Origin: an uncultured virus (IMG/VR IMGVR_UViG_3300050508_000500)
Taxonomy: Duplodnaviria > Heunggongvirae > Uroviricota > Caudoviricetes
Virus record (IMG/VR): IMGVR_UViG_3300050508_000500
Direction: 5' to 3' (one strand)
Length of the DNA stretch: 64,000 nt
Below the pieces are notes generated by a model that saw only the letters and a program-made list of their open reading frames with translations, was not told the DNA's origin and did not search any database. This document shows positions 26,353-41,340 of the stretch, in pieces (within the stretch, counting starts at the first letter, position 1; the number at the start of each line of letters is the position of its first letter). The position numbers were made by a program, and so were the translations under genes.

Positions 26353-26376
26353 GTGGGAGGGTGTGCGCCCTCCCAC
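26353..26376 (-). terminator. Hairpin downstream of the peptide gene
   Basis: GTGGGAGGG/CCCTCCCAC 9-bp stem; pyrimidine run follows on the minus strand. Confidence 0.5.
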
Positions 26377-26390
26377 GCCGTTATCTGGGA

Positions 26391-26543: not shown

Positions 26544-26609
26544 ACACCCTCCTGGCGCGGCTCACGGGCCGCCTATGACTGGTGTGGGCCATGGCCCACC
26601 GTGCCAGGA

Positions 26610-26745
26610 CGCCCCTGACACGTGCTGTTCCAAGTGTAGCAGACCGATGGCGTATTTTCCTATACGTAAATAAATTTTTTACTTTTGTAGAATTTTACCG
26701 CATACATTTTTCTTTTGTAGAAGTCACGCAAAAGGTGTATGCTAG
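26610..26745. promoter_or_regulatory. AT-rich divergent promoter region with direct repeats
   Basis: CTTTTGTAGAA at 26682 and 26712; TTGTAG-17-TATGCT on + strand; TGcTACACT on - strand. Confidence 0.55.
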
Positions 26746-26816
26746 CCACGAACCGCGGGGAACGGTGTCCCCTTTTCCCCGGCGCTGTGCCCCTACCCCT
26801 AAGAGACACAAGGACG

Positions 26817-27194
26817 ATGGCCGACCCAGAGGCGGGAGACGTGCGCGATGATATTGCACGGCGCCTTGACGCCATGCGCGAGGCGAAGCAATGGACGTTA
26901 ACCGAGTTAGCCAGGCGAGCCGGGCTCAAGCTCGGGGTCCTCTCGTCGCTCCATCGGGGTCGCCTGAAGGGGGCACATATGAAGCTCGGGGTCGCGCAGC
27001 AACTCTGCCGTGCCCTCGGCGCCAAAGTGGGGCGCGACCTGTTGGGCGAAGACGAGGAGGCGCCGGGGCTACCGACGCTGCCCGAGGGGGTCGATCTGGG
27101 GCAGATGTCCCAAGCGGAAAAAGATACCCTGATCATTCATCTGCTGGCGGAGGTGCTCCATCGCGGGCTGCACATGCCCCCCCTACTGGGGTAA
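26817..27194 (+). CDS. XRE-family HTH regulator
   Basis: RLDAMREAKQWTLTELARRAGLKLGVLSSLHRG...LCRALG. Confidence 0.8.
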   Translation: MADPEAGDVRDDIARRLDAMREAKQWTLTELARRAGLKLGVLSSLHRGRLKGAHMKLGVAQQLCRALGAKVGRDLLGEDEEAPGLPTLPEGVDLGQMSQAEKDTLIIHLLAEVLHRGLHMPPLLG

Positions 27195-27204
27195 AGGAGT
27201 GACG

Positions 27205-27360
27205 ATGGCTGAGAAGATCCCTGATAATCGCTGGCTGCGCGAAACTCTGCCGGTGCCCGACGAGGCCGTGGCCTGGGAGGAGGAAGTGGCCGCGATGACC
27301 GAAGACGAGTTCTATAAGTACCTGGAGGAGTGCGAGGGTGGCCTCGCCTTTGGGGTCTAA
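27205..27360 (+). CDS. 51-aa highly acidic protein (absent from ORF track)
   Basis: AAGGAG RBS; MAEKIPDNRWLRETLPVPDEAVAWEEEVAAMTEDEFYKYLEECEGGLAFGV. Confidence 0.6.
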   Translation: MAEKIPDNRWLRETLPVPDEAVAWEEEVAAMTEDEFYKYLEECEGGLAFGV

Positions 27361-27384
27361 GACCCGGCAGCGTTCGCCGCGTGG

Positions 27385-28269
27385 GTGCCCTCTGACAAGC
27401 GTCCCACGCGGCACGTAGCACACAGCCTCGGAGAAAGGTGTGTTGTGGTAAGCATACCAGATCTATCCTCCACGCATGCACCTCCTGTGACAACGCCTCG
27501 CGCTGTTGAACCCACCGTGCTCCAGCCCGAGGCGCGTCCGGCGCATCCCGACCTGATGCTCTTACTCGCCATGGAGCATCTGCAACAGGCGCAGCAACGG
27601 CTCGAAACCGAGGTGCAACAACTCGCCCCGCTTCTCGAACAAATCATCACCCTGCTCACGCCACGCAAAGAGCCCCAGGCGCCTCCCATCGCCTCCTATG
27701 CGAGCTTGTATGCTGACGAGGACCCGCCTGACGTGTTCCCCCAGGCGACCGAGACGCCGCCGAGACCGCCGCAACGAGGGGGGTGGTGCCGTCTCTTCGC
27801 CTCGCGCAGTAGCCGGGTCTGCGCCGTGGTGGCCCTGCTCATGGTGTGCGCACTTCCCTGGTATCGAGTGAATGTCACGTCCAGTGCGCCTCGTGGCCTC
27901 TGGCGTCTGCTGGCCGTGCCGGCGGTCGTCGAAAAAGGCATGTGGGTGACCCTGCCCGCGCCCGCGAGTGTGAAAACCTGGGCACCGCACTGGGCACACC
28001 TGCTCAAGCCGGTGGCCGCGGTAGCCGGGGACCAGGTATGTGTCGCCAAGGACACGCTCTGGATTCGGGGGCAATCCTTTGGCCGTGTCCTCACGCAGGA
28101 TGCGGAGGGGCAGCCTTTGCCACGGTTGCGGGAGGGCTGCGTGGTGGTACAGTCTGGCACGGTGTTTCTGGCCAGTGCCGCGCCCCAGAGTCTCGATAGT
28201 CGCTATTTTGGGAGTGTGCCCGTGACGGTACTGACCGCGCAGGCGCTCCCGCTCCTTACGTGGAGGTAA
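27385..28269 (+). CDS. traF: Conjugative S26 peptidase (pilin maturation) with N-terminal extension
   Basis: NVTSSAPRGLW (Ser), LLKPVAAVAGD (Lys), SLDSRYFG. Confidence 0.85.
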   Translation: MPSDKRPTRHVAHSLGERCVVVSIPDLSSTHAPPVTTPRAVEPTVLQPEARPAHPDLMLLLAMEHLQQAQQRLETEVQQLAPLLEQIITLLTPRKEPQAPPIASYASLYADEDPPDVFPQATETPPRPPQRGGWCRLFASRSSRVCAVVALLMVCALPWYRVNVTSSAPRGLWRLLAVPAVVEKGMWVTLPAPASVKTWAPHWAHLLKPVAAVAGDQVCVAKDTLWIRGQSFGRVLTQDAEGQPLPRLREGCVVVQSGTVFLASAAPQSLDSRYFGSVPVTVLTAQALPLLTWR

Positions 28270-28273
28270 TGGT

Positions 28274-28624
28274 ATGGATTCCTTCCAGCACATTCGTGAT
28301 CGTCTCGCCAACCTGTATCGTACCGCCCTCGGCCGGGAGCCCGCGCCGGGCCAACGCCAGGAGTCGTCTCTCGTGAACGGCATCCTGCGGCAAACCCTTG
28401 ATCCTGACCAGGGGCTGGCACAGCAGCGCCTCACCACCCCCGAGCGGACGGGTCCTCAGTCGTCGCTCTCGCGGCAGACGGTTGACCATCTGGGACAGCG
28501 GACGACCCCCACGCCACAGGCCCAACACTTCCTGGAGCAGATTGACGCGCTGCAACAACGCCTCGCTGCTGCCCGGCAGGCGGATCAGGCCCAACGGCGC
28601 CAGGGGTGGGAGCGTGGGCGCTAG
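28274..28624 (+). CDS. Hypothetical protein of the tra region
   Basis: GGAGG RBS; Gln/Arg-rich; ends QRRQGWERGR. Confidence 0.55.
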   Translation: MDSFQHIRDRLANLYRTALGREPAPGQRQESSLVNGILRQTLDPDQGLAQQRLTTPERTGPQSSLSRQTVDHLGQRTTPTPQAQHFLEQIDALQQRLAAARQADQAQRRQGWERGR

Positions 28625-28645
28625 GCAGACTGGTAGGGATCTACA

Positions 28646-30160
28646 ATGACTGGCTTTGAGATGATCTTACAACTCGGTCTGTGGGCCAAGACGCATCCCC
28701 ACCTGCTGTTTGGGGGGATGGGGAGCATGCTGGCCCTGATGGCTGGAGCCGGGATGCTGGGGCATGCCAAACGGCACAAACAGATTACCCAGGGAAGCGC
28801 TCGGTGGGCGACGTTTCGCGAGATCCGGGACGCGGGGTTGCTGGCGCCCCAGGGCGTGGTGGTCGGGCGCTTAGGGCGACGGCTCCTCTGTGACGCCAGC
28901 GATACGCACGTGTTGCTCCTGGCGCCTACGAGGACCGGCAAAGGCGTGGGGCCGATTTTGTGCACCCTCCTTGGGGGATGGCACGCCTCCGCGCTCGTCT
29001 ACGATCCCGCCGATGGCGAAAACGCGAACGCCTCGGCGCCGTATCGGGCCGCACTGGGACACCGTGTCGCCCAATTTACGCCGAAGCGCTCGCCCCAGGC
29101 CTGTATCAATGTGTGCGACCTTATACGGGTGGGAACGCCGCACGAGTTTGATGATGCCTGGGCGATTGCGGAGAGCCTCCAGCCGCAGGACCAGCAGGTG
29201 CGCCACAGTGACACTGGCGTCCATTTTCGTGACCTGGTGTTGATGCTGCTCACCGCCGCGCAACTGCATATGGCCTACGCGGAACCGCCAGGCTCACTCG
29301 GCAAATTGCTGTGGCTCCTCATGCAGAAGTACCGCACGCTCCCGGCGTTTGTGCAGGCGATGACGCGAGAGAACCACACGGGCATCGGCGTCCATCAGGC
29401 CATTCATATGCTGGCAACGGGGATTCAGAATATTACCAACGAGCGCGAGCTCTCGGGAGTATGGACGACGGCGATCCGCCCGCTCTTGCCCTATATGGAT
29501 TACGCGATCCAGCGCAGCACGGATCGCTCGACCATCGCCCTGCGCGATTTGCAGCATGGCCCCACGCCGCTCACGCTCTACCTCGTGGCGCCCAGTACGA
29601 CGGATTTGACGCGCCTGGCCCCGGTGTACCGGGTTATTTCCGATATGGCCATGCGCGAACTGGAGCAGATGCCGCCAAGGAGCGCCCGGCATCGCCTGCT
29701 CGTTATTGCGGATGAGGCCCCGGCGTACGGGTATAGTCGCTTCCTCGATAAAGGCAGCGCCGAAGTGGCCAAGTACGGCATCAAGCTCCTCCTTGTGGCG
29801 CAAGATCTGCCGCAACTGGACGCCACGTTTGGGCGGGAAAATAGCGTCTGGGGCAACACCTCCACCAAGATTTTCTTTGCTCCGGATAGCGATCTCACGG
29901 CCAAGCGTCTCAGTGAGAACTTTCTTGGCAAAGAAACCGTCGAGCAACCCGTCCTCTCGAAGCAGGCGGGCCTCGTCCAGCGGCCTTCGGTCTCGTACCA
30001 GCAAGTCGGGCGGTTCCTGATGACCCCTGATGAGTTGCGGGCCATGGACCCACGGGCGGCGATTGTCTACCAGACGGGGTTGCGGCCCATTCTATGCGGC
30101 AAGGTCAATTGTTTGACGGATCCAGAATATGCCGGGCGGCATGCGGCGCCAGTCCCGTAG
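28646..30160 (+). CDS. traG: Type IV coupling protein (VirD4/TraG family)
   Basis: N-terminal TM; GSARWA; Walker A APTRTGKG; Walker B LVIADE; AQDLPQL; LMTPDEL. Confidence 0.95.
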   Translation: MTGFEMILQLGLWAKTHPHLLFGGMGSMLALMAGAGMLGHAKRHKQITQGSARWATFREIRDAGLLAPQGVVVGRLGRRLLCDASDTHVLLLAPTRTGKGVGPILCTLLGGWHASALVYDPADGENANASAPYRAALGHRVAQFTPKRSPQACINVCDLIRVGTPHEFDDAWAIAESLQPQDQQVRHSDTGVHFRDLVLMLLTAAQLHMAYAEPPGSLGKLLWLLMQKYRTLPAFVQAMTRENHTGIGVHQAIHMLATGIQNITNERELSGVWTTAIRPLLPYMDYAIQRSTDRSTIALRDLQHGPTPLTLYLVAPSTTDLTRLAPVYRVISDMAMRELEQMPPRSARHRLLVIADEAPAYGYSRFLDKGSAEVAKYGIKLLLVAQDLPQLDATFGRENSVWGNTSTKIFFAPDSDLTAKRLSENFLGKETVEQPVLSKQAGLVQRPSVSYQQVGRFLMTPDELRAMDPRAAIVYQTGLRPILCGKVNCLTDPEYAGRHAAPVP

Positions 30161-30196
30161 GCTGGAGGCGGGAGGCGGGAAGAGAAGGAGAGCCCC

Positions 30197-30526
30197 GTGG
30201 TGGTGAGCACAACGAAGCGGAGCAAAACAGTTGGCGTGGTGGTGCTGCTGGGCGTGTGCCTGGTGGCACGCCAGGCACACGCCTTTTCCCTGGGGATTGC
30301 CCTGGATGGCTTTCTCGGGGATCTGGAAACGGCCATGGTCTCGCTCGGCCTGGTTGCTTTCCTGGCGGGTGGGATTGGGACCATCGTGGCGATGACCGAG
30401 AATGCCTACGCGCAATTCTTAAGTGGGTATCTCTCGCTCTTCGTCAAAGGCGGCATTTTGGGAGGACTCTCCACGATTGGCGGGGCCTTGGGTCTCGTCA
30501 GTGGCGCCCTCCTGCTAGGAGCATAG
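30197..30526 (+). CDS. trbC: Pilin (TrbC/VirB2)
   Basis: Signal ending AHA plus two hydrophobic helices; precedes VirB3/VirB4. Confidence 0.7.
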   Translation: MVVSTTKRSKTVGVVVLLGVCLVARQAHAFSLGIALDGFLGDLETAMVSLGLVAFLAGGIGTIVAMTENAYAQFLSGYLSLFVKGGILGGLSTIGGALGLVSGALLLGA

Positions 30527-30527
30527 C

Positions 30528-30824
30528 ATGGCCGAACGGTGGGGGACGCTGGGCTACGAGGCCCCGATACGGTTAGGCACCTGGCAACGCCTGCTGAGTC
30601 TGGGGGCACCCCGCATGTACTCCTACACCTGGCTCATTGCCTGTATCTGGGTGGGCCTGGTGACGTGGATGAAGCTGGGCATGCGCTGGGCGGCTGCGGT
30701 AGGTGTCGTCTGGCTCAGCGTCCAACTCCTGCTTATAGGCCTCACGTACTGGAATGTGAATTGGGATAGTGCATTGCTGGCGCGCTGGCGGCGCAAGTAT
30801 CAACCGTACTACAGAAGCGGCTGA
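30528..30824 (+). CDS. trbD: VirB3/TrbD
   Basis: GYEAPIRLG...LLSLGAPR then two TMs. Confidence 0.8.
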   Translation: MAERWGTLGYEAPIRLGTWQRLLSLGAPRMYSYTWLIACIWVGLVTWMKLGMRWAAAVGVVWLSVQLLLIGLTYWNVNWDSALLARWRRKYQPYYRSG

Positions 30825-30839
30825 GAGAGGAGGGATGGC

Positions 30840-31430
30840 ATGAATCATCGGCAGCATAGCTTGATATGTGATGTTTGTTTCGGTGAGTTTTTGGGGTGGA
30901 AACCAACTCAGCGCTATTGCAGCCGAAAATGTGTTTGGGCTTCTTTCCGTTTCACGGAAGCCGATTTCTGGCGATTGGTTGATAAATCTCCTCGGCCGAA
31001 AGGGTGCTGGTTGTATACCGGGTCTGCGTATGATAACGGGGGCGGGATTAGCTATGGAAAATTTGGGGCTGCCTATGCTCATCGTTATGCATATGAGCGT
31101 TACCATCCAGGGGTAGTTTTAACTTCAGACGATCTTATCTGTCATACCTGCGACATAGGATTATGCGTTCATAAGGACCATCTTTTTAAAGGAGCATGTC
31201 AAGACAACATGGATGATGCACGTTCAAAAGGACGAATTTCTCAAGGTTCAAAACATCCAGGAGTCACGACGACAGAAGAGGTAGTCAAAAAGATATGGGA
31301 TGAATGGCAAAGAGAGGGGAGACCAACACTCAAAGTCCTTGCACAAAAGTATGATGTCTCCTTTTTCGTGGCCATGCATATTGTGTCGGGGACAACCTGG
31401 AAACATGTAACGCGCCTGAAGGGACTCTAA
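30840..31430 (+). CDS. HNH homing endonuclease inserted between trbD and trbE
   Basis: FWRLVDK...GCWLYTG...AHRYAYE...CHTCDIGLCVHKDHLFKG...DNMDD; visibly more AT-rich than flanks. Confidence 0.9.
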   Translation: MNHRQHSLICDVCFGEFLGWKPTQRYCSRKCVWASFRFTEADFWRLVDKSPRPKGCWLYTGSAYDNGGGISYGKFGAAYAHRYAYERYHPGVVLTSDDLICHTCDIGLCVHKDHLFKGACQDNMDDARSKGRISQGSKHPGVTTTEEVVKKIWDEWQREGRPTLKVLAQKYDVSFFVAMHIVSGTTWKHVTRLKGL

Positions 31431-31432
31431 CC

Positions 31433-34060
31433 ATGGCGGTCTATACCGAATACCACCCCACGCCGCGCAAAAAACCTGCCGTGGTATCCGACATGCTGCC
31501 CTGGCGCGCCATGGTGGCTCCCAATGTGGTGCTTCAGAAAGATAAAGGCTTACAACGCTCCTATGCCGTGCGAGGCACCGACGTGACGGGCCTCACTCCC
31601 GAAGAGTTGGGCACGCAAGCCCTGCGGGCCAATGATGTCCTGAAGAAGTTTGGCGGGCAGTGGATGATCCATAGTGAAGCGCAGCGCCGCCGCGTGACCT
31701 CCATCCCGCAGGCAGATTGGCAGGGCTATGCGGTGGCCGCATGGATGGATGCCTGTCGCCGTCAGCAGCTCCTGGTCGACCCCGGCAGCTACGAAACACA
31801 GTATTTTATGACGCCGACCTACCGGCCGCCGCCTGAAGCCGCGGTCCAGGGCCTGCGCTGGTTTCTCTATGGTCCCGGCGCCCAACGTCAGACAGCAACC
31901 CAGGCACGGCAGCGCACCGAACAGGAGTTTGTCACGCAAGTCGATTACTTTATGGGGCTCTTGTCAGGCATGCTGGCAGAATGTCGAGTCCTGACGCCAG
32001 CGGAAACGTTTACCTATCTCCACTCCACGATTTCGGATCAGTGGCACCCGGTCGGGACGCTCGCCTACTGGAACGGCATTGATAGCCAACTGGGCACCTC
32101 GCCCTGGTATGGGGAGCATTATCCGAGCCTGGGCGGGCGGCCTGATGACCCCCACTCCTGGAAAGTGCGGCTCTGCTCCATTATGGGCTACCCCCATAGC
32201 TCGGTGGTGGGAGTCATGCAGGCACTCGATGTGGCGCAAGTGGAGTATCGCTGGGTGGTGCGCTGGCTGGGGATGCACCGGCAACTCCAGGAAGGGATTT
32301 TGCGCCGCCGCCACCATGCCTGGGTCGGCCAGGAAAAGACCATGGCGCAGCGCGCGGCAGAACAGCTCGGCGGGGACATGGCCCGTGTGACGGATAGCTC
32401 GGCCTTGAACAAAGCCGCCGAACTCGATGCGGCCAGGCAAGAAACGGGGCATGACCTGGTAGCCTACGGCGATTTTACGACGGTTATTATGGTCTGGGAC
32501 CGTGATCCGGCTGAGGCGGACATGAAGCTGCAAGTCGTGCGGCAGGCCCTCCAGGATCGCGGCTTCACCACGGCGATTGAAACTGATGAGAGTACGCCCG
32601 CCTGGTTTGCCACGCATCCGGGGAACCGCCTCGATCATGTGGCCCGCACGCCGCAGTCCTCCCTCACGCTCGAACACCTCTGCCCCGGCCTCAATGCCGC
32701 TTGGCGCGGTCCGGCGCGTGACGAGTATCTGGACGGCTTGCCGTGGCTCTATGCTGTGAGTCGCGGGAATACCCTCATTCGCATTGTGAACCATATTCGT
32801 GACCTGGGACACTTCTTATTGCTTGGCGCAACACGCTCTGGCAAGTCGACACTCCTCAATGTCCTGCGCGCGGCCTGGATGCAGTACCGCCACGCGCAAG
32901 CCATGCTCTTCGATCTGGATGGGCACGGCCGGCTGCTCACCCACCTGCTTGGCGGCGCGTGGCATGATTTGGGGGCGCCGGGTGTCCAGTATGCCCCGTT
33001 TCAGGGCCTGGAGGACGCGGAGCACCTGGGCCTGGTGCAAGAGTGGCTCCTCGACCTCTTGCTCGATTACGGGATTACGCGGGATGCGATGGTGGTCAGT
33101 CACCTGGGGCGCGGCCTGGCGGCCTTGCGGGAGCAACCGGCTTCGAAGCGCACCATGAGTACGCTCCTCAGCCTCCTGGTGGCGGCGGGGGAATCCGCGA
33201 CGCAGCGCGCCCGCACCGGCAGTCGAGATATTCACGGGATTGCCCACCCGGATCAAACCCTCATGACCCTGGTCAATACTAGGCATGCCATCCACCGCAC
33301 GCTCGAGCAATTTACGCAGCGGGGGGTCTATCAGGGCCTCTTTGATGCGGCAACGGACGCCTTGACGAGCCATCCAGTCCAGACCTTTGAGATGGCGCAA
33401 CTGCTCCATCGCCCGTCCGTGCTGGCCCCGGTGCTGCGCTATATCCTCAATCTCCATGTGGAGCCCCAGATGAGTACGGCGGCGCCCATGTTGCTCGCCA
33501 TGGATGATGCGGCGGTCTCGTGGATGGCCGACTCGATGACCCAGGAAGTGACCGGCATGGCGGGGGTCCGGCGCGAAGAAAAAGTGCAGACCTATCTCCA
33601 AACCAAGGCGAAAAAAGCCGTGAGCCTGGGCTTTTCCACCCACAGCCTCATTAAAGTGTTTGGTGGGCCGCTGGGGACCCTCCTCCAGGAAGCGTGTCCC
33701 ACGCGATTTTACCTCCCGAACGGCGCGGCGCTGGAGCCCGATATTTACGCGGTCTATACCCGGCTGGGCCTCACCGATCCCGCCATTCAGTTGGTGGCGC
33801 ACGCGCAGCCGCAACGGGATGTCTTCTTTGCGCAACGCGAACTCGGGCAGCAGCTCGTGAGTCTGCCCCTGCCGCGGCCCGTGCTGGACTGTGTCGCCCG
33901 CAATAGCATGGCGGACCATGCTCTCATGGATCACCTCCTCGCGCAGGAAGGGCCCGAGGGGTTTGCCCCGGCCTGGTTTCGCGCCTGTGGGCAGCATGAG
34001 GCGGCGACGTTTGTCGAAAGGTATCACGATGACGCGAAGCGAATGGTTCCAATTGCCTGA
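31433..34060 (+). CDS. trbE: VirB4/TrbE ATPase
   Basis: SDMLPW...VVLQKD; Walker A GATRSGKST; ACPTRFYLPN. Confidence 0.92.
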   Translation: MAVYTEYHPTPRKKPAVVSDMLPWRAMVAPNVVLQKDKGLQRSYAVRGTDVTGLTPEELGTQALRANDVLKKFGGQWMIHSEAQRRRVTSIPQADWQGYAVAAWMDACRRQQLLVDPGSYETQYFMTPTYRPPPEAAVQGLRWFLYGPGAQRQTATQARQRTEQEFVTQVDYFMGLLSGMLAECRVLTPAETFTYLHSTISDQWHPVGTLAYWNGIDSQLGTSPWYGEHYPSLGGRPDDPHSWKVRLCSIMGYPHSSVVGVMQALDVAQVEYRWVVRWLGMHRQLQEGILRRRHHAWVGQEKTMAQRAAEQLGGDMARVTDSSALNKAAELDAARQETGHDLVAYGDFTTVIMVWDRDPAEADMKLQVVRQALQDRGFTTAIETDESTPAWFATHPGNRLDHVARTPQSSLTLEHLCPGLNAAWRGPARDEYLDGLPWLYAVSRGNTLIRIVNHIRDLGHFLLLGATRSGKSTLLNVLRAAWMQYRHAQAMLFDLDGHGRLLTHLLGGAWHDLGAPGVQYAPFQGLEDAEHLGLVQEWLLDLLLDYGITRDAMVVSHLGRGLAALREQPASKRTMSTLLSLLVAAGESATQRARTGSRDIHGIAHPDQTLMTLVNTRHAIHRTLEQFTQRGVYQGLFDAATDALTSHPVQTFEMAQLLHRPSVLAPVLRYILNLHVEPQMSTAAPMLLAMDDAAVSWMADSMTQEVTGMAGVRREEKVQTYLQTKAKKAVSLGFSTHSLIKVFGGPLGTLLQEACPTRFYLPNGAALEPDIYAVYTRLGLTDPAIQLVAHAQPQRDVFFAQRELGQQLVSLPLPRPVLDCVARNSMADHALMDHLLAQEGPEGFAPAWFRACGQHEAATFVERYHDDAKRMVPIA

Positions 34061-34271
34061 GCGTGAGCGCGCGGCGATTCGGCAGGCGAGTGCCGAGGCC
34101 AGCTTGCGCGAGTTTGCCCCACGCCGCGACCGGCGTCGCAGTGACTGGCAGCGCACCATAGATGTCTGGGAAGCCCGAGATGCGTACCGGGTACAGAATG
34201 GCCTGCTCGGCGTCGGACTCGCGTTGCTCCTCGGGTTTGTCCTGGCATGTGCGGGGGTGTTTCTCCGCTAG
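34029..34271 (+). CDS. Small protein with C-terminal TM
   Basis: MTRSEWFQLPERER...GLLGVGLALLLGFVLACAGVFLR. Confidence 0.45.
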   Translation: MTRSEWFQLPERERAAIRQASAEASLREFAPRRDRRRSDWQRTIDVWEARDAYRVQNGLLGVGLALLLGFVLACAGVFLR

Positions 34272-34282
34272 AAAGGTGACGT

Positions 34283-34489
34283 ATGAATCGCCACGTGCTG
34301 ATGGGAGGTGTCTGGGTGGCGGGCATGCTCCTCCTGATGCTGGTGGGGGTGGTACTGCTCGCGTTCACGCTGAGTGGCTGCGCGGACTTTGGCTATCGGA
34401 TGAATGAACTCCATGGCTTAAATTGCCGGCCCGAGGCGCTCAAGGACGGAAAATGTGTGAGTACCAGCAGCAAGGAGGCCAAGCAATGA
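34283..34489 (+). CDS. Small lipoprotein (entry exclusion TrbK-like or VirB7-like)
   Basis: Lipobox LSGC; adjacent to trbJ. Confidence 0.55.
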   Translation: MNRHVLMGGVWVAGMLLLMLVGVVLLAFTLSGCADFGYRMNELHGLNCRPEALKDGKCVSTSSKEAKQ

Positions 34490-35181
34490 GACTTCGTACG
34501 GTCCTGGCCATCGGGGTGTTGGTCGCCACTCCGCTCTCTAGCGGTGCACAGGTCCTGGGTACCGGAATTACACCGGTTGCTGAGGTCGGAGCGAATCTGG
34601 CTCAAAATACGATCACGGCCATCCAAAGCGCCATCACGTCTGCCCAGACCACGCTTATCCAACTCAACCAAATTATCGATCTCACCCCCGTGAAATCCCT
34701 CACGGCAGCCGGGGGGATCGTCGAGGACATCGAACTCATGTGCGACCTCCTCAAGCAGGCGGAAGCGCTCAACGCCGACGTGCAGAGCCTAGAGCGGCAG
34801 ATCGCCGTACTCCTGGACCTGGAGCAAGCTCCCCGCACGCGGTCGGAGTTGGATCAGCGGATGGCCGAACTCAAAAAGATGAAACAGGAAGCCCGGACGT
34901 TTGCCTTTCGCACGCAAACCCTGATTAAGACCCTTATTCGCACCGGCGACCATGTGCGGGCACTTTTTGAGGACGTGGAAAAACTCTTGGGCAACCTGGC
35001 CGGGCAACAACGCCTCGCGGAAGTGCAGCAGAACCAGACCAAGACGTTGGCCGTCCTGGCGGCCCAGACGGCGGCGTGGCAACGCTCGGAGGTCATTGAC
35101 CGCGCCTCGGCCGACATGATCCGGGAAAGCCTGAGCCGGATTGGCGATCAACGCCTGGCCGACTGGCCACGCTGGGAGTGA
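34486..35181 (+). CDS. trbJ: TrbJ/VirB5-like protein
   Basis: Signal peptide; ANLAQNTITA; GNLAGQQ; helical and Gln-rich. Confidence 0.75.
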   Translation: MRLRTVLAIGVLVATPLSSGAQVLGTGITPVAEVGANLAQNTITAIQSAITSAQTTLIQLNQIIDLTPVKSLTAAGGIVEDIELMCDLLKQAEALNADVQSLERQIAVLLDLEQAPRTRSELDQRMAELKKMKQEARTFAFRTQTLIKTLIRTGDHVRALFEDVEKLLGNLAGQQRLAEVQQNQTKTLAVLAAQTAAWQRSEVIDRASADMIRESLSRIGDQRLADWPRWE

Positions 35182-35184
35182 CGC

Positions 35185-36117
35185 ATGGGAGCCCTCATTA
35201 ATCTCCTGGCGGGCGCCTATCTGAGCGCGCTCGAAACGGGTGCCCAGGCGCTGGCCCAGTACGCCATTCCTATCCTGAGTGTGGCCGCGCTCATCCAACT
35301 CTACCGGGAATGGTGGCCGGTCATGCTGAGCGGCGGGAGCCAGCTCGGCGACGCCCTCGGGCATCTGCTCTTTTTGGCGGTCACCACGGGCTTTTATATG
35401 TGGGTCTTGGTCCATCTCTGGGAGATGGGGCAGGCGGCCTTTGACACGTTTGCCACCTGGGGCATGCTCGGGGGCGGCAATGGGCTCAGTAGCGAGCAAC
35501 TCCGCAACCCTGGCTTTATCCTCGACATTGGCCTCCGCGTCGCCTTTCCCCTCGCTGAGCAGGCCACCTGGTATCAAAAAATCTGGCAGGGCTTGAACCT
35601 GGCCTTTGCGCCCAGCGAATGGTTGCAGGTGCTCGCCATTACGCTCGCCTTTGCGGCCATTGCGGTGCATCACCTCTTTATGCTCGTGGAGTTTTACCTC
35701 GCCCTCATGTGCGGCCAGGTCCTCATTGGCTGGGGTATCTGGCGCACCACCACCCATTTTGCCGAGTTTAGCCTGGGGTGGATTACGGGGGCCCTTATTC
35801 GGGCGCTCGTGAGTTGTACGATGATTGGTCTCTCTCTCCCGCTCTTTGAGCAACTCCGTCTGCCCCCGCCCGCGACGGGAGGCGTCTTCGATGTCATGAC
35901 CTACATCCAGGCAGCCACCCCCGTGATCGGGAGCCTCATTTTTGCGGTCCTGGCCTGGGTCCTGCCCGCCAAGGCGGCACGGCTGGCGGGAGGGGCCTCG
36001 CTGGGCCTCACAGGCTCGACGATTGCCTCGGCGGCCATGACCACGACCCGCTTTGTCCAGATGTCGGCCGGGGTGGCGCGGGGTACCTCGGCCATGCTGC
36101 GCCGGGTAGGCGCGTAA
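35185..36117 (+). CDS. trbL: TrbL/VirB6 inner-membrane protein
   Basis: Polytopic; LRNPGFILDIG; VEFYL...LIGWGIWRTTTHFAE; PAKAARLAGG. Confidence 0.85.
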   Translation: MGALINLLAGAYLSALETGAQALAQYAIPILSVAALIQLYREWWPVMLSGGSQLGDALGHLLFLAVTTGFYMWVLVHLWEMGQAAFDTFATWGMLGGGNGLSSEQLRNPGFILDIGLRVAFPLAEQATWYQKIWQGLNLAFAPSEWLQVLAITLAFAAIAVHHLFMLVEFYLALMCGQVLIGWGIWRTTTHFAEFSLGWITGALIRALVSCTMIGLSLPLFEQLRLPPPATGGVFDVMTYIQAATPVIGSLIFAVLAWVLPAKAARLAGGASLGLTGSTIASAAMTTTRFVQMSAGVARGTSAMLRRVGA

Positions 36118-36121
36118 GGAG

Positions 36122-36883
36122 ATGCCCATGGCGACGCGCATGGCGACAGACGTGGCCCCCACCATCGGCAGCAGCAACGGCCATGCCCTGCCAACCTTGC
36201 CGCCAGAGCTCGAAGCGTTTCCCGCCATGATTGAGGCCGTGATGACGCAGACGCGTGCCGACCTCGATGCGCGCGATGCCTCGGCCGAACAGCACGCCTG
36301 GCTGTGGCATCGGTTTGCGCTCTGGCTGGCTGGTCTGCTCTTTGGGGCGCTGCTCATCGTCGCCTGGCTCGTCTATGAGCGCCGCGACGTGCAGGCCTTC
36401 GTGCAGGTGGTGCAGATGGACGAGGGCCGTCTCGTGCAGATTGGCGTCCCCCAGAAGCTCCTCGACTATACCCCGCCTGATGCGCCCTACATGGACATGC
36501 TGGCCGAATGGCTGCGCCGGGTCTACTGGCGCGGCGACGACGTGGCTAAGGCCGAGTTGCATGATTGGCGCTGGGTGGAACTCCACACCTGCCCCAGTGC
36601 GCGCCCCTTTCTGGCGGGGCTCAAGTCCAAACAGAAACCGGGCAAAAAAGTGACCACCCGGGTGCAGGTGAATATCACGAGCATCACCAAAACTCCGACG
36701 CCCAAGAGTTATCAAGTGCTCTGGGAACAGGTGACCACGGGAACCGACGCCAAAGGCAAGGCGGCGCAGTTTACCACCACGTTCACCGTGGGTCGCCTCG
36801 CGCTCAAAACGCTGGCAGACGCCGAAGATAACCGCTTAGGGATTTGCGTATCGTCGTTTGACACGGCTGAAAATGCGACGTAA
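36122..36883 (+). CDS. trbF: TrbF/VirB8
   Basis: AWLWHRFA + TM; VQAFVQVV; VNITSI...SYQVLWE; NRLGICV. Confidence 0.85.
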   Translation: MPMATRMATDVAPTIGSSNGHALPTLPPELEAFPAMIEAVMTQTRADLDARDASAEQHAWLWHRFALWLAGLLFGALLIVAWLVYERRDVQAFVQVVQMDEGRLVQIGVPQKLLDYTPPDAPYMDMLAEWLRRVYWRGDDVAKAELHDWRWVELHTCPSARPFLAGLKSKQKPGKKVTTRVQVNITSITKTPTPKSYQVLWEQVTTGTDAKGKAAQFTTTFTVGRLALKTLADAEDNRLGICVSSFDTAENAT

Positions 36884-36896
36884 GGAGTGCTCTCGT

Positions 36897-37850
36897 ATGC
36901 GTGTCCTTGGTGTGCTTGTGCTGTGCCTGCTGACGGGGTGTGCGGAGCCCCCGCCGCCGCCTCTGGTGCCTCCGCCGCCCGAGGATCTATCTCTGTGGTC
37001 TGTTCCTGAAGTGGTAAGCCCTGCACCGGTCCAGGCCGCCGCTGAGGCATCCCCGGTCAAAGAGGTGCCTCCGACACCCGCCGAGAAAGTCTATACCTAC
37101 ACGCGTGGGGGGACGTACCTGGCACCCGTCAGCCTGGGCTTTCCGTTGGATATTGTCTTTGGTCCTGGCGAGCAAGTGCATACGCTCACCGATGGGGACC
37201 GGACGCCCCAGGAAGAGGGCAAGGCCCGCAAGTGGCAGGTGCTCCAGGGCGAAGAAGGGAGCGGCGCGGAGACACGCCATCATGTGTTCGTCACCGCGAG
37301 CGAGGTGGGACTGCGCAATGGCCTCGTCGTCACGACCACCAAGCGTGTCTTTTATATCACGCTCGAAAGTGTGGCGAAGTCGCCGATTCGGGTGCTCCGG
37401 TGGAAGGAGGAGGCCGGGTCGGCTGAAGGGACAGGCCATCGCGCTAAAGAGCCAAGCTTACTGCCAGATCCTGCCGAGCCAAAGAGGTGGCATGTGGGCT
37501 ATGTCCTGACGTCCTCGCAGGCCCAAGCCCCCGACTGGTGGCCTCGCCATGTAGTCGATGACGGTCGCAAAATGTATATCGTGCTGCCGGAGGTGACCCT
37601 CTTTGGCGTGGCTCCCATGGTACGGATGATTGGCCCGAACGGGCCAGCGCTGGTCAATGCGCGCACCTATCTTAACGTGATTATTCTGGACCAACTGGCA
37701 GCCCGGCTGGAACTCCGGGTGGGGATAGGCGAGCAGGCAGAAGTGGTCACGATAGCCAGGGGAAGGCTACGCACCATCGCGTGCCCGGATGATGCGGACT
37801 GCCCCCAGTTTCCCGCAGCGGCGCAGCACCTCGCAGGGAGGAGACCATGA
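36897..37850 (+). CDS. trbG: TrbG/VirB9 (lipoprotein signal)
   Basis: LTGC; YTYTRG...DIVFGPGE; LVVTTTKRVF; PRHVVDDGRKMYI. Confidence 0.88.
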   Translation: MRVLGVLVLCLLTGCAEPPPPPLVPPPPEDLSLWSVPEVVSPAPVQAAAEASPVKEVPPTPAEKVYTYTRGGTYLAPVSLGFPLDIVFGPGEQVHTLTDGDRTPQEEGKARKWQVLQGEEGSGAETRHHVFVTASEVGLRNGLVVTTTKRVFYITLESVAKSPIRVLRWKEEAGSAEGTGHRAKEPSLLPDPAEPKRWHVGYVLTSSQAQAPDWWPRHVVDDGRKMYIVLPEVTLFGVAPMVRMIGPNGPALVNARTYLNVIILDQLAARLELRVGIGEQAEVVTIARGRLRTIACPDDADCPQFPAAAQHLAGRRP

Positions 37851-38974
37851 GAGGCGCCGTCTATACCAACCCCATGTCCGCGCCGCCGGTGACAGGGCGC
37901 TCCTTTGGGCGTCTCATTGGCGCCTTTGTCGTGGTCGTGGTGCTTATCCTGGCTGTGGTGGGCGGGCTCCTCTACCTGCGCCGGACGTCGGCCCCGCCCG
38001 CGACGCCCGCGGAAAAGCCGGTGCGCACCTGGAAAAGTCAGAGCATCTATACGCCACTGGACAAAGACCCCGTCGTCCGCGATATCACGGTCCAGGCACT
38101 ACCCACGGTGGCGGCCGCGGCCCCCGATACGGTCGGCCCACGGCTGGAGGCGCTAGAGCGCCAGTCCAAAGACATCCTGCACAAGCTTGAAACCCTCCAG
38201 CATCCGCCCGCGACGCGTGCGGCGGTCCAGGCGCCTCCCCGGCAGGCCCCCAGAAAGGACACCCCGAAGCCGCCGGTGCCACCGCTCCTCATCACCAACA
38301 AGGTGGAGCCATCGCCCGTACCGGAGACGACCCGCCTCTACACGCTCGCCCCAGGGGCCACGAAGATTCCCTTTGTCCTGGAGACGAAGATCATTTCTGA
38401 TGTCGAGGGCTATATGACGGGACGGGTGATCTCGAATATCTTCGATACTGCGACAGGAAGACATCTTTTGATTCCGCAGGGCTCGACGGTCCTCGGCAAT
38501 ACGCAGAGCAGTAAACTCGTCTACGGCAATGAACGTCTTGACACCATTACTCTCAAACTTGCCTTCCCTGATGGGCGGAGCGTCGATCTCGATCGGGCAC
38601 CCATCACGGATCAGGAAGGCGTATCCGGGATGGGAGGTGATGTAAACCAACATTATGGCAGATTGTTAGCGGCCGTCCTCATTCAGGGCGTCCTCAAGGG
38701 TGGAACGACCTCTATCACTGTCGCTGCGAATGAAGCCGCCGGTGTGGGTCATATCGCTTCGAGCGTGGCAGGCGTTGGCGCGCAGGCGGGAACGAAGATT
38801 ACGGGACCACTCCTCAGCACCAAACCCACCATAACCGTTGAAGCTGGCCAGCTTGGAAACGTCATCTTACTCAAAGAGTTAAAACTTCCAGAAATGTGGC
38901 AGGATGGGGAGCCGCGTGAGGCACCGAAGCCCACGCCTGCGGCGACACACAAATCGACCCCACTCAGGAGATGA
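37847..38974 (+). CDS. trbI: TrbI/VirB10
   Basis: TM + Pro-rich linker; IFDTATGRHLLIPQGSTVLG; DQEGVSG; PTITVEAG. Confidence 0.92.
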   Translation: MRGAVYTNPMSAPPVTGRSFGRLIGAFVVVVVLILAVVGGLLYLRRTSAPPATPAEKPVRTWKSQSIYTPLDKDPVVRDITVQALPTVAAAAPDTVGPRLEALERQSKDILHKLETLQHPPATRAAVQAPPRQAPRKDTPKPPVPPLLITNKVEPSPVPETTRLYTLAPGATKIPFVLETKIISDVEGYMTGRVISNIFDTATGRHLLIPQGSTVLGNTQSSKLVYGNERLDTITLKLAFPDGRSVDLDRAPITDQEGVSGMGGDVNQHYGRLLAAVLIQGVLKGGTTSITVAANEAAGVGHIASSVAGVGAQAGTKITGPLLSTKPTITVEAGQLGNVILLKELKLPEMWQDGEPREAPKPTPAATHKSTPLRR

Positions 38975-38978
38975 TCCT

Positions 38979-39398
38979 ATGACCAGAGCAGAACGTGCTG
39001 CCGAGACAGTGCGCAAAGCGAAAGAAAGATTGCTTGAACATGAACGCCTCGCCAAAGCGCAGCGACTAGCCCAACGCAAGGCTATCATGCAGGCCGAAGC
39101 CGCTGTTCGAGAAGAGGACCGCAAGGCGACAAACAAACGCCGCTATCATGTGGGCGCTATGGCCGATGAGGCCGGACTGTTTGCGTGGAGTAATGCCGAC
39201 CTACGCGGGCTCTTTGTGCTACTGGCGACCCTGGGGGACTGCCCTGATCCTGTGGCGGTCCTGGAGGGGCTGTTGGTGAAAAATGGGGTCGCAGTTGCGT
39301 GGGACTCTGATGATCTCGAAAGAGATCATCCTTTCGCGCTTTCTTCTCCAAGCGCCCATGCAGGGAAGAACTCCCCTTCCCCTTCTCAAGACTCCTGA
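38979..39398 (+). CDS. Relaxosome accessory protein (TraD/MobC-like)
   Basis: Coiled coil then RKATNKRRYHVGAMADEAGL; upstream of the relaxase. Confidence 0.55.
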   Translation: MTRAERAAETVRKAKERLLEHERLAKAQRLAQRKAIMQAEAAVREEDRKATNKRRYHVGAMADEAGLFAWSNADLRGLFVLLATLGDCPDPVAVLEGLLVKNGVAVAWDSDDLERDHPFALSSPSAHAGKNSPSPSQDS

Positions 39399-39490
39399 CG
39401 AGTCCGACTGGAAGGAGGTGAGGAGGGAGTAGCCAACGGCAGTGGGAGTCATTGTCAGAGCGAAAACCGTCCAGCAGCAGGAGTGAGGCT

Positions 39491-40219
39491 GTGAGCCGCG
39501 AAGCATCTCATGATGAGAGGCGTATCGCAGACAGGGTGGTGCGTGGTGCTATCTATGGCTATGTCTATGTTGTGCAGATGGAAGGCTATCCATGGTTGAA
39601 AATTGGACGGACAGAGCATAGTGATAGTGAGGCGGTACGGCGTCGAGTCAGAACGATGCAGACAGGCTGTCCACTGCCCTTGCAGATTGTGAAAGAATAT
39701 CCCTGTGAGAATCCAATGGTTTTGGAACACGCGCTCCATATATTCCTGGCGCGCCACCGGCGACACGGTGAGTGGTTTGAAACCACGCTTGAGCAGATTG
39801 AGCGCCTGATGGTAAGGGCGCATTACCATCCGTCACTCTGGAGAGAGGCGGTCGAGCAAGAGCAGGAGGCTAGGCGGGTACGTGCAGAGGTCGAGAGGGC
39901 AAGAGGTGCACAGTTTTTTGCGGATCAGTGTGAGAATGCTACGCTAGAACGTACGCGGCAGAGGGCGCAATGGGAGGCCACGCACGCCAGCGAAGATGCC
40001 GAGCGAGCGAGGAGGATCCAGGCAGACATGCGCGCCTTTGCTCTCGCAAGAAAAAAGCGGCGTCTCGGGAGGAGAGCCCGCACGCTTGGTGTGCTGTGTT
40101 GTGGGCTCGTGGTTGGGGTCGCAGGGACCGTGCTCGTGATGATGACGTCCATGAGCAACGGGCACCACACGTCGTATCAGCGTGTGCAGGGTGGCGCATT
40201 TGCTCTTTCTCCAGACTAG
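39491..40219 (+). CDS. GIY-YIG (T5orf172-like) nuclease with C-terminal TM; start uncertain
   Basis: GYVYVV...KIGRT...RRVRTMQTGCP...LEHALH...GEWF. Confidence 0.8.
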   Translation: MSREASHDERRIADRVVRGAIYGYVYVVQMEGYPWLKIGRTEHSDSEAVRRRVRTMQTGCPLPLQIVKEYPCENPMVLEHALHIFLARHRRHGEWFETTLEQIERLMVRAHYHPSLWREAVEQEQEARRVRAEVERARGAQFFADQCENATLERTRQRAQWEATHASEDAERARRIQADMRAFALARKKRRLGRRARTLGVLCCGLVVGVAGTVLVMMTSMSNGHHTSYQRVQGGAFALSPD

Positions 40220-40227
40220 GTCTTGCC

Positions 40228-41340
40228 ATGCCTCATCTGCACTTTCGACGAACCGTGTATAAGAGTGGAGGGCACAAAGCGGTGGCCCGGCTGGAATATA
40301 TTAGCGGAAGACAGGTCGTCCAGTCTGAGCAGGCAGGCAGGCAGCTTGCGTACATAAGCAATGGTCGTGAAGACCTTGTCGCCGAAGGGACGCGCAATCT
40401 CCCGGCCTGGGCACGCACGGCTCACGAGTTTTTCACCGCTGCCGAGCAGTATGAAAGACCATCGCCTTACGATGCGCAGCGGCGCGGTATCGCCTTTGAG
40501 GAATGGAAAATCACGCTCCCTCACGAACTGTCACGCGAGCAGAACCTGGCCCTAGTCAAGGATTTACTGACGATGATTGCCGGGAATCGCTTGCCCTACA
40601 GCTATGCCTTTCACAATCCACAGACCCTGAGTGGCACGCAGCCGCAACCGCACATCCATCTTCTGCTTTCTGGGCGCCTCACGGGCACCACGGATGAGTA
40701 CCAACGTCCCGTGGCGCAGCACTTTAAGCGGTGGAACAGCAAGGAGCCCGCACGCGGTGGGGCGAAGAAAGATCCCGCCATGAATCACCAGGGTGCCATC
40801 AAAGCGTACCGGCTCATGATTAGCGATGTCGTCAATCTCCATCTCGAACAGCATGGGCATGTGGCGCGGGTGCACCCTGACAGCCTCAAGAGTCGGGGGA
40901 TCGACCGTGAGCCTGAGCCCAAGCTGCTGCCGAGTGAAAGCGCTGCCTACCGCACGCATGGTGTCGTCTCTCCGGCTCTCGCCAAAGTCCTCGACATCCG
41001 TCAGCTTCGCGCCACAGCGCCGCCCCGCGAGCAGAACAATGCGCGACAGTATTGGGAGCAGCGCAAGGCGTTCTTGGGCATTACACGGGACATGCCGCAC
41101 GCTCAGAAGCTCGCGCACATTTTGCTCAAGCGCCACGGCACGGTCGAGCGGGTGCCAGCGCGCTACCGGGCACTGCTGCAGCACCAGCCTTCTCGCATGC
41201 AGGGGCAGAGGCAAGCGCGGGGTGGGCAGTTGCAGCGGCTCGCGCGGGTACTCGTCGCGCAGCTGGAAGATACCCGCGCTCAGGGGACGCTGCGCGTGCG
41301 ACTGCATGAGCCAGAGCGCGATCAGGGAATAGGGATATGA
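40228..41340 (+). CDS. mobA: MobA/MobL (MOBQ) relaxase
   Basis: ARLEYISGR (Tyr); EWKITLPHELSREQ; YAFHNP...QPHIHLLLS; VHPDSLKSRGIDREP. Confidence 0.92.
   Translation: MPHLHFRRTVYKSGGHKAVARLEYISGRQVVQSEQAGRQLAYISNGREDLVAEGTRNLPAWARTAHEFFTAAEQYERPSPYDAQRRGIAFEEWKITLPHELSREQNLALVKDLLTMIAGNRLPYSYAFHNPQTLSGTQPQPHIHLLLSGRLTGTTDEYQRPVAQHFKRWNSKEPARGGAKKDPAMNHQGAIKAYRLMISDVVNLHLEQHGHVARVHPDSLKSRGIDREPEPKLLPSESAAYRTHGVVSPALAKVLDIRQLRATAPPREQNNARQYWEQRKAFLGITRDMPHAQKLAHILLKRHGTVERVPARYRALLQHQPSRMQGQRQARGGQLQRLARVLVAQLEDTRAQGTLRVRLHEPERDQGIGI

Follow-up and report, generated by a model that had tools for sequence, protein, structure and literature searches.

The T4SS module and its genes

We analysed a conjugation module that lies within a tailed-phage genome of an uncultured virus from rhizosphere metagenomes. 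The stretch of DNA under study, called the window, comprises 64,000 nt of IMG/VR record IMGVR_UViG_3300050508_000500, and coordinates refer to it unless marked as composite. Frames were scanned against Pfam, PHROGs and NCBIfam, with NCBIfam and Pfam serving as proxies for the typing of the type IV secretion system (T4SS) and the relaxase. The T4SS module is located between the tail-fibre genes and the early/replication arm. It forms a tightly packed plus-strand operon in which all frames are open. A first-pass annotation had described phage tail, TerL and portal genes on one molecule with a T4SS, a coupling protein and a relaxase, all in open plus-strand frames, and this was confirmed by the Pfam, NCBIfam and PHROGs scans. 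In operon order, the genes of the module are as follows.

26841-27194 (alternative start 26739), plus strand: Cro/CI-type helix-turn-helix (HTH) regulator, first gene of the module; PF13443, E 3.5e-6
27385-28269 (conserved part from 27487), plus strand: TraF-type S26 peptidase; PF10502, E 2e-14; TIGR02771 TraF_Ti, E 1.3e-21
28274-28624, plus strand: small Gln-rich protein without family match
28646-30160, plus strand: TraG/VirD4 coupling protein; PF02534, E 3.5e-55; NF010450 IncP TraG, E 3e-73
30197-30526, plus strand: pilin-like protein at the place of TrbC/VirB2; signal peptide, two hydrophobic helices, no profile match
30528-30824, plus strand: TrbD/VirB3-like small membrane protein; two hydrophobic helices, no profile match
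30840-31430, plus strand: HNH gene between the trbD-like gene and trbE; PHROGs 1872 and 59
31433-34060, plus strand: TrbE/VirB4 ATPase; NF010447, E 9e-162; TIGR00929, E 1.6e-61
34316-34489, plus strand: small lipoprotein with LSGC lipobox, VirB7/TrbH-like or TrbK-like; TIGR04359 TrbK, E 7e-4, below cutoff
34486-35181, plus strand: TrbJ/VirB5-like protein; signal peptide and coiled coil, no profile match
35185-36117, plus strand: TrbL/VirB6; PF04610, E 1.7e-10; TIGR02783, E 4e-18
36122-36883, plus strand: TrbF/VirB8; PF04335, E 6e-14
36858-37850, plus strand: TrbG/VirB9; PF03524, E 2.6e-27; TIGR02775, E 1.4e-21
37847-38974, plus strand: TrbI/VirB10; PF03743, E 2.4e-33; NF038091, E 7.6e-24
38979-39398, plus strand: small basic coiled-coil protein, read from the translation, without family match
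39452-40219, plus strand: T5orf172/MUG113 (GIY-YIG-like) gene; PF13455, PF10544; variable between phage types
40228-41340, plus strand: MOBQ relaxase, 370 amino acids; PF03389, E 9.7e-18; NF041496 MobQ, E 9e-17
41337-42410, plus strand: beta-helix protein (N-terminus signal-peptide-like) whose gene overlaps the stop codon of the relaxase gene; PF13229, E 1e-24

A further small membrane frame follows trbE and precedes the lipoprotein gene. The catalytic motifs expected of the main components were intact. In its translation, TraF displays S26-type Ser and Lys motifs, and the coupling protein carries Walker A (APTRTGKG) and Walker B (VIADEA) motifs. Across 22 clade members, the Walker A columns of VirB4 do not vary. 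The core proteins VirB6, VirB8, VirB9 and VirB10 all scored above the Pfam gathering score.

The pilin, VirB3 and VirB5 candidates fit by position, size and topology, and none of them was matched by an NCBIfam or Pfam profile. The earlier naming of trbC, trbD and trbJ agrees with topology and position, but no family profile backs it. Position and topology suggest that the product of 30197-30526 is TrbC/VirB2. The TrbJ-like protein is 37% identical to a protein of the related record G007 (67,012 bp) that bears DUF4141. Its AlphaFold model was all-helical, of low confidence (pLDDT 57.5) and too poor for a fold search. The Trb gene order reported at first matched the operon, except that trbB is missing.

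The relaxase had been assigned to the MobA/MobL family with a start at 39970. The family, as MobA/MobL-MobQ, was recovered, but the start most likely corresponds to M87 of the long frame 39970-41340, that is, to window position 40228. Tyr24 and the histidines 129, 142 and 144 are invariant. A profile built from four relaxase orthologues matched MobA of R1162 (2ns6) with an E value of 7e-31. The small basic protein is 47-67% identical over ~100 amino acids in G007 and in L030 and L031, two contigs of the related phage types described below, and its gene lies directly upstream of the relaxase gene in the relatives. It is a candidate relaxosome accessory protein.

Linkage, conservation and selection

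The record nearest to the window was G001, an IMG/VR "provirus" of 64,380 bp with a CheckV completeness of 70%. By BLAST, G001 positions 1-20009 are the reverse complement of window 1-20009 (100% identity over 20,009 bp), and positions 43799-64380 are that of window 43419-64000 (99.85-100% identity over 20,582 bp). The middle 23,789 bp of G001 (segment X) lie outside the window, and window 20010-43418 (segment M) lies outside G001. With the shared parts called A and B, the window has the order A-M-B and G001, in window orientation, the order B-X'-A. Together they form a composite circle of 87,789 bp. The CheckV value of 70% for 64,380 bp implies ~92 kb, which is near the length of the composite. 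The map thus fits a circular or circularly permuted phage genome of ~88 kb.

The ends of G001 coincide with the end of gene 19122-20009 and with position 43419. Its "host flanks" are segment M, and therefore the provirus label is no evidence of integration. IMG/VR trimming had removed exactly the T4SS/depolymerase segment (20010-43418) from G001 as non-viral, and this removed "host" DNA is phage. Virus-calling pipelines may systematically conceal such elements by trimming conjugation genes as host DNA.

Segment X' contributes a MuF-like gene (PF04233), the major capsid gene (PF20911), a DnaT_2 connector-type gene, the tail terminator (PF12691) and a Gp80-like gene. These are the head genes expected between portal and tail tube. 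The following hallmark genes lie in the window.

60534-62036, plus strand: TerL; phrog_5902, E 2e-58; phrog_2, E 2e-36
62033-63583, plus strand: portal; phrog_145, E 5e-107
826-1227, plus strand: tail tube; PF08813/phrog_158
2450-6544, plus strand: tape measure with SLT domain, 1364 amino acids; PF20155

The markers of Caudoviricetes were thus found with TerL and portal in the window and the major capsid in X. Tail tube, tape measure and tail terminator are present, and no sheath family appeared in any scan. The first description as a siphovirus rests on the long tape measure, the tail tube and this lack of a sheath gene; the head genes themselves are outside the window, in the 23.8 kb of G001.

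Both junctions of the module, between tail fibre and T4SS and between relaxase and early genes, were present in the window and recurred in L028, L029, L030 and L031/L032, which gives at least four assemblies broken at different places. L028 (70,484-bp contig) matches composite 21433-43330 at 99.99% identity, and L029 (56,390-bp contig) matches composite 21433-44057 at 100%. If collinear with the composite, the first contig would extend from ~60.65 to 43.35 kb and the second from ~5.97 to 62.36 kb, with ends that differ from those of the window. The longest contig in both the 100%-identical portal cluster and the 100%-identical GH9 cluster was 70,484 bp, as would be expected if portal, GH9 and VirB4 share one contig.

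A second phage type comprises G002 (40,992 bp), L030 (87,501-bp contig) and L035. L030 is 100% identical to G002 over 13,138 bp, and L035 is 99.97% identical to L030. G002 is collinear with composite 30311-77717 at 68-89% nucleotide identity and holds T4SS genes, relaxase, RecT, TerL, portal, MuF and capsid on a single contig. L030 covers composite 21654-43578, and both module junctions are kept. The third type consists of L031 and L032, which are identical over 4,063 bp and together cover 25277-43581. Thus two diverged phage types keep both junctions at 75-89% nucleotide identity to the window. Logan contigs from four rhizosphere runs covered 29-30 of the 30 bins of 24001-44000, and some pieces bridged VirB10, T5orf172 and the relaxase at 38654-41317. 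Read joints with 21-letter sides were treated as noise. Since these four runs may include the source sample, they were not taken as independent evidence.

These contigs bear directly on an assembly chimera of phage and plasmid reads. All data are metagenomic, and the Logan per-run contigs are short and broken in the module region, as such an artefact would have it. However, the junctions were found in contigs from at least five data sets, in three sequence types and with different break points. Because the junction sequences of the diverged types have themselves diverged, they were assembled from different reads. We regard a chimera as extremely improbable.

Selection was estimated as the ratio of non-synonymous to synonymous divergence (dN/dS, Nei-Gojobori), comparing T4SS genes of the window with L030, L031 and L032 and core virion genes with G002 and G003. 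Over the family-matched T4SS genes and the pilin-like, TrbD-like, lipoprotein and TrbJ-like frames, dN/dS was 0.04-0.23. The lowest values were those of the TrbD-like protein (0.04-0.06; 96-98% identity in the relatives, 39% to the G007 counterpart), TrbF (0.05-0.06), VirB4 (0.06-0.07) and TrbL (0.05-0.09). The coupling protein (0.09-0.11), TrbI (0.12-0.13), TrbG (0.16-0.23) and TraF (0.20-0.22) followed. For the pilin-like protein, identity in the relatives was 86-88% and dN/dS 0.10-0.14. The Gln-rich protein (78-84% identity, dN/dS 0.14-0.21) and the HTH regulator (67-69%, dN/dS 0.14-0.25) were compared in L030 and L032. The relaxase gave 0.21-0.35. Thus, the T4SS module is under purifying selection.

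The virion genes behaved similarly. The virion set had dN/dS values of 0.03-0.16, with 0.06-0.14 for TerL and portal and 0.05-0.12 against G003 for tube, tape measure, gpJ-like protein and fibre. Synonymous divergence (dS) was 0.35-1.5, mostly 0.35-0.8, for T4SS genes and 0.45-2.4 for the core virion genes TerL, portal, MuF and capsid. Because T4SS dS is like core-gene dS, the module looks as old as the phage backbone. Paralogues point the same way. The beta-helix protein 41337-42410 and the N-terminal part of 19834-22479 are paralogous (BLASTP, 36% identity, E 6e-52), and so are T5orf172 39452-40219 and 46844-47305 (E 3e-9); the module is thereby tied to the rest of the genome. Linkage and conservation of the T4SS module in the phage genome, taken on their own, can be stated with high confidence.

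A protein-database search with VirB4 returned 223 matches at E <= 1e-30, the best 120 of which were listed. Among these, 110 were 40-93% identical and came without exception from metagenome-type sources; the next 10, at 30-33% identity, were canonical TrbE proteins, e.g. of Bradyrhizobium. The best plasmid TrbE reached 31.8% identity (1,378 matching records among 72,556 PLSDB plasmids), and none of these plasmids carried a VirB4 of the phage lineage. A FastTree tree was built from 93 rows, namely 88 of the 120 listed proteins (780-1000 amino acids) and five rows from the window and fetched loci; 32 listed proteins, including an intein-bearing one, were dropped for length. Eighty-three rows grouped in a single clade, which was separated from the 10 canonical TrbE rows with support 100. 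Members linked to phage genes (the window group, P0038, G007 and P0097) occurred in two of the three main subclades. VirB4 and portal matches from the same source shared a contig size of 50,619 bp for P0038 (51% and 73% identity) and of 105,655 bp for P0097 (41% and 73%). Many clade members among the matches listed were on 80-105 kb contigs. G007, with a VirB4 of 47% identity, carries the same T4SS set and relaxase at 37-58%, together with RecT (49%), a homologue of 48765-49343 (66%), and methyltransferase, VRR-NUC, primase and tail-fibre genes.

Within the scanned collection, three IMG/VR records hold this T4SS clade, compared with at least 110 protein-database clusters. Coupling-protein and relaxase alignments against IMG/VR returned G002 and G007 again and nothing further, and megablast of 26000-42500 gave no match in 50,697 phage records and 72,556 plasmids. 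The VirB4 tblastn matches in three of these 50,697 phage records were rejected; they are unannotated human-faecal "Bacteriophage sp." contigs of 5-16 kb with 27-30% identity. A single-sequence VirB4 search of genome contigs found no relative. The 22-sequence VirB4 alignment retrieved canonical TrbE at 29-32% from the same contigs, plus one remnant at 39%. This remnant lies at the start of a contig of an Acidimicrobiales metagenome-assembled genome (MAG; L047:1-5613), with TrbC-like and TrbD-like frames and a coupling protein broken into three frames. A degraded copy of the T4SS lineage within a cellular bin would be one reading, an artefact of binning or long-read error another. P0043, a clade member of 1221 amino acids on a 100,012-bp contig, has Hom_end and LAGLIDADG domains, which would be an intein in VirB4.

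The module could also be a separate integrative and conjugative element (ICE), integrative and mobilizable element (IME) or plasmid that was recently inserted into the phage or cointegrated with it, with parallels in p1002-1 and the streptococcal phage-ICE tandems. The removal of 20010-43418 from G001 as non-viral would agree with this, as would a GC content and gene types unlike those of classic phage genes, conjugation genes being plasmid hallmarks. The first-pass annotation had named an own integrase with att sites, and an empty site in relatives, as signs of such an origin. No integrase or recombinase was found in the called frames of the 87.8 kb, and the flanking repeats were short and imperfect, with no exact direct repeat. 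Both junctions are kept in phage types that differ in 11-25% of their nucleotides. A recent arrival is also contradicted by T4SS dS values similar to those of core genes, by the paralogues of module genes elsewhere in the phage, by G007, which shares T4SS and replication genes at similar protein divergence, and by a VirB4 whose identity to canonical TrbE does not exceed 33% among the best 120 of 223 matches and in PLSDB. This origin is very improbable.

No empty site was found in the relatives, and G003 (62,798 bp; TerL 96% identical) was uninformative. Between TerL and 26553, across the head and tail genes, it is collinear. It diverges exactly at 26553, where the T4SS control region should begin, and ends within 427 nt (L021:1-427) in a minus-strand Pro-rich frame. 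This end could be a T4SS-less variant or an extra gene at this place, and it neither shows nor excludes an empty site.

Phage context, mobile genes and the control region

The remaining features of the window are given below.

826-24352, plus strand: tail and fibre module (Pfam, PHROGs)
8618-9001, plus strand: NlpC/P60 protein
8932-14229, plus strand: gpJ-like protein, 1765 amino acids
14596-16089, plus strand: S74-chaperone fibre
19122-20009, plus strand: Laminin_G protein
19834-22479, plus strand: beta-helix protein with signal-peptide-like N-terminus
22490-24352, plus strand: GH9 cellulase with CelD_N domain
24349-25149: KilA-N gene without orthologue at the same site in other phage types
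25184-25218, plus strand: strong terminator-like hairpin (15-bp stem, then a T run) downstream of the tail/fibre operon
26033-26191: DUF3309 membrane protein, 52 amino acids; E 8e-14
26650-26745: AT-rich non-coding region upstream of the T4SS operon
42456-43562, minus strand: Gly-rich repeat protein, last gene of the leftward early arm (from the translation)
44983-58971, minus strand: early/replication arm (Pfam, PHROGs), including several HNH genes
44983-46080, minus strand: RecT
47579-48853, minus strand: AAA_25 helicase
50669-52600, minus strand: DNA methyltransferase
52803-53781, minus strand: Bro-N/AntA proteins
54932-55735, minus strand: VRR-NUC protein
2-736, 7149-7679, 30840-31430, 39452-40219, 46844-47305, 50407-50655, 54404-54898 and 56897-57910: homing-endonuclease-type genes

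The plus strand resumes at 59339 with an HTH protein, a probable small terminase (TerS), TerL and portal. This layout suggests a genome of two arms. The rightward arm would start at ~59.3 kb and pass through TerS/TerL, portal, head, tail, fibres and depolymerase-like enzymes to the T4SS, the relaxase and the beta-helix protein, ending at 42.4 kb. The leftward early arm would run from 58.97 kb down to 42.46 kb. No tRNA was found in the window, and neither an endolysin nor a holin could be recognised in any part of the genome.

At least eight homing-endonuclease-type genes, six HNH and two T5orf172/GIY-YIG-like, are distributed across all modules. A codon-usage gene caller missed at least five of them, and three are at sites that are empty or different in relatives. 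The first description of the conjugation module needs one addition here: two of these variable genes (30840-31430 and 39452-40219) lie inside it. The site of the HNH gene measures 614 nt in the window type and 8-23 nt in L030, G002, L031 and L032. T5orf172 39452-40219 had no match in L031 and was 42% identical over 93 amino acids in L030. Like the KilA-N gene, neither has an orthologue at the same site in the other types. Thus, phage-style turnover, in which homing endonucleases come and go, takes place inside the T4SS operon.

Four proteins with signal-peptide-like N-termini bracket the T4SS: the two paralogous beta-helix proteins, the GH9 cellulase and the Gly-rich repeat protein. The latter has no family match and is 93% identical in L030 and 82% in L031; from its N-terminus and its sequence, we read it as a probably secreted, beta-helix-like protein. 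Such neighbours may point to a programme directed at the cell surface or the biofilm matrix. The nearest named GH9 homologues (48-54% identity) belonged to Verrucomicrobiota MAGs in four of the six named rows among 120 listed. In the Atlas, Myxococcota was the commonest taxon. Both are leads to the host and nothing firmer.

Composite 69311-73195 (G001 34604-38491) is a three-gene island in the head module that is absent from G002 and G003. It encodes a 343-amino-acid protein, a HerA-like ATPase (PADLOC HerA, mad8) and a DNA methyltransferase (mad2, MTase_II), and may be a phage-borne defence or anti-defence cassette.

The DUF3309 gene and two other small genes sit between the late-operon terminator and the T4SS control region. 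The AT-rich region 26650-26745 contains two TTTTGTAGAA copies with a spacing of 30 bp, as well as an inverted repeat (26700-26711 / 26731-26742). L030 and L032 conserve this region, whereas the sequence on either side has diverged. We consider the region a candidate promoter/operator, or possibly an origin of transfer (oriT). The search for sigma-70 promoters was uninformative (7 found, 6.1 expected). From the terminator, the operon's own HTH regulator and the conserved AT-rich region it follows that the T4SS operon is probably regulated apart from virion production and switched independently of virion assembly.

As a candidate oriT, the 10-nt MOBQ nic core GTGCGCCCT at 26363 was tried and rejected, with 1.02 occurrences expected and at least one found in 59 of 100 shuffles. 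The core lies in a hairpin (26353-26376; GTGGGAGGG, 6 nt, CCCTCCCAC) that is the only such site in the window. The MOBQ oriT consensus, given as NWACCNNTAAGTGCGCCCTYNN in the consulted part of PMC3832669, was matched in the 10-nt core only, at this non-conserved site. Other inverted repeats in the searched region were unremarkable.

An operon with its own regulator and control region would also suit a mainly conjugative plasmid or a carrier-state phage-plasmid, in which the virion genes serve occasional packaging, resemble a gene transfer agent or are defective. The lack of an integrase, the circular map and the antirepressor-type genes (Bro-N, AntA, KilA-N) speak for it too. However, neither ParA/B nor a plasmid Rep turned up among the frames scanned over the 87.8 kb, apart from a ParG-like hint (E 0.007) below cutoff. 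The replication arm is phage-like, with RecT, AAA_25 helicase, methyltransferase and VRR-NUC, and at least eight homing-endonuclease-type genes are present. Moreover, the virion set is full and selected (TerL, portal, MuF, capsid, tail terminator, tube, tape measure, gpJ-like protein and fibres). An element that is mainly a plasmid is therefore quite unlikely.

A possible mating route and comparison with known systems

Since relaxase, coupling protein and a pilus-type channel are kept together under selection, DNA transfer by mating is the simplest reading of the module. As the relaxase gene moves along with the phage genome, this genome would be the obvious substrate. Pilin matured by TraF would join the VirB3-10 homologues in a P-type mating channel of the infected or carrier cell. 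The MOBQ relaxase would nick a putative oriT on the phage DNA, and the TraG-type coupling protein would feed the relaxase-bound single strand into a neighbouring cell. The phage would thereby gain a second, contact-dependent transmission route that is independent of the tail receptor. We consider it probable that T4SS, coupling protein and relaxase are an ancestral and functional part of the ~88-kb tailed phage and transfer its genome by mating.

Several observations weigh against this. VirB11/TrbB (T2SSE) was absent from all 87.8 kb and from G007 in the Pfam and NCBIfam scans, so the channel would have to work without it. This ATPase is essential in the RP4 and Ti systems. The sole extra ATPase is the HerA-like one of the head-module island, which G002 and G003 lack. 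Every T4SS profile score was below the NCBIfam curated cutoff; the proteins are therefore far from any characterised system. No oriT was established: the GTGCGCCCT core is changed in L030, and the surrounding 357 bp are missing in L032. Among lifestyle genes, the scans gave no integrase and no partition system, and neither a lysis cassette nor a lysogeny module was recognised. So many homing endonucleases are suggestive of a lytic phage, and a lytic cycle would allow little time for mating. As to linkage, the extents of the 70,484-bp and 56,390-bp contigs rest on arithmetic and equal sizes, the co-occurrence of portal and VirB4 in P0038 and P0097 on equal contig sizes, and the 67 kb of G007 gave no TerL, portal or capsid match. 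Finally, T4SS expression and mating transfer are themselves putative; among the sequencing runs listed, there was no RNA set.

The missing VirB11 and the failure to find an oriT would also agree with a phage-borne T4SS that is real but does not move the phage genome. It could deliver proteins or the relaxase, preparing or disarming neighbouring cells, mobilise other DNA, or form a biofilm pilus or adhesin that holds cells together while the depolymerase-like enzymes act for virion spread. T4SSs with a VirD4 protein and a non-conjugative role are known, and the GH9 cellulase and the three beta-helix/Gly-rich neighbours suggest a cell-envelope or matrix programme. On the other hand, a MOBQ relaxase with invariant Tyr and His triad adjoins the T4SS in three phage types as well as in G007, purifying selection acts on this relaxase, and relaxase plus coupling protein is the signature of DNA transfer. 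We consider a role other than transfer of the phage genome unlikely, and we favour mating transfer.

A wider proposal is more tentative. At least 83 VirB4 sequence clusters, many on 80-105 kb contigs, could represent an old and diverse family of soil/rhizosphere tailed phages that spread their own genomes both as virions and by a VirB11-less, Trb-like conjugation system with its own MOBQ relaxase; we hold this to be slightly short of an even call. If true, it would define a "conjugative phage" lifestyle and break the division of mobile elements into virion-borne and conjugative movers. It would open a phage route into cells that lack its receptor and call for different models of host range, superinfection and gene flow in soil biofilms.

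The name "conjugative prophage" is reportedly used in print for streptococcal Φ1207.3. A 2025 review states that no phage-plasmid or prophage is known to move both in virions and by conjugation (PMC12282955). Pfeifer et al. 2021 searched phages with CONJscan and report no conjugative phage in the passages available (PMC7969092), and the accessible part of a 2025 preprint describes only sporadic T4SS domains among putative phage-plasmids (10.1101/2025.11.07.687105). Full-text literature searches returned no phage lineage with a Trb-type T4SS in the text portions retrieved; a single-cell preprint with a passing "conjugative phage-plasmid" may bear on the claim. A tailed phage with a near-complete conjugation apparatus and a relaxase as a conserved, selected part of its genome is the combination that reviews say has not been found before. 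A phage lineage that keeps a mating apparatus under selection for long would contradict the statement in PMC12282955, if it moves both ways.

Trb/MPF-T systems of IncP/RP4 and Ti plasmids and of Tn4371-like ICEs are alike in gene set and most of the gene order, and the best NCBIfam models are IncP/Trb. Shared are TraF, TraG and then trbC-, D-, E-, (K/H)-, J-, L-, F-, G- and I-like genes. In contrast to these systems, the phage module has no TrbB/VirB11, scores below the curated cutoffs, has a VirB4 at most 31.8% identical to those of PLSDB plasmids and resides in a phage genome without plasmid replication or partition genes. The relaxase of RP4 is the MOBP protein TraI, whereas the phage enzyme is of MOBQ type and closest to MobA of R1162. 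It resembles R1162/RSF1010 MobA (2ns6) over the nuclease domain, with the catalytic Tyr region and the H...HxH motif aligned, but is without the primase domain at 370 amino acids.

Phage-plasmids such as P1, N15 and SSU5 are alike in combining a tailed-phage genome, no integrase and plasmid-type functions. They are, however, defined by plasmid replication and partition genes, none of which were found in this phage. Virion and conjugation genes on one DNA molecule are also known from phage/conjugative-element cointegrates and tandems. Examples from the portions of the sources consulted are the E. coli cointegrate p1002-1, called a "conjugative phage-plasmid" (SegMantX preprint), streptococcal phage-ICE tandems (PMC13651849) and prophages riding on conjugative megaplasmids (PMC12934698). 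As described there, these are recent fusions of recognisable elements with their own maintenance or integration genes. The phage module, by contrast, has no such genes, keeps its position in diverged phages and falls in a VirB4 clade seen in metagenomes only.

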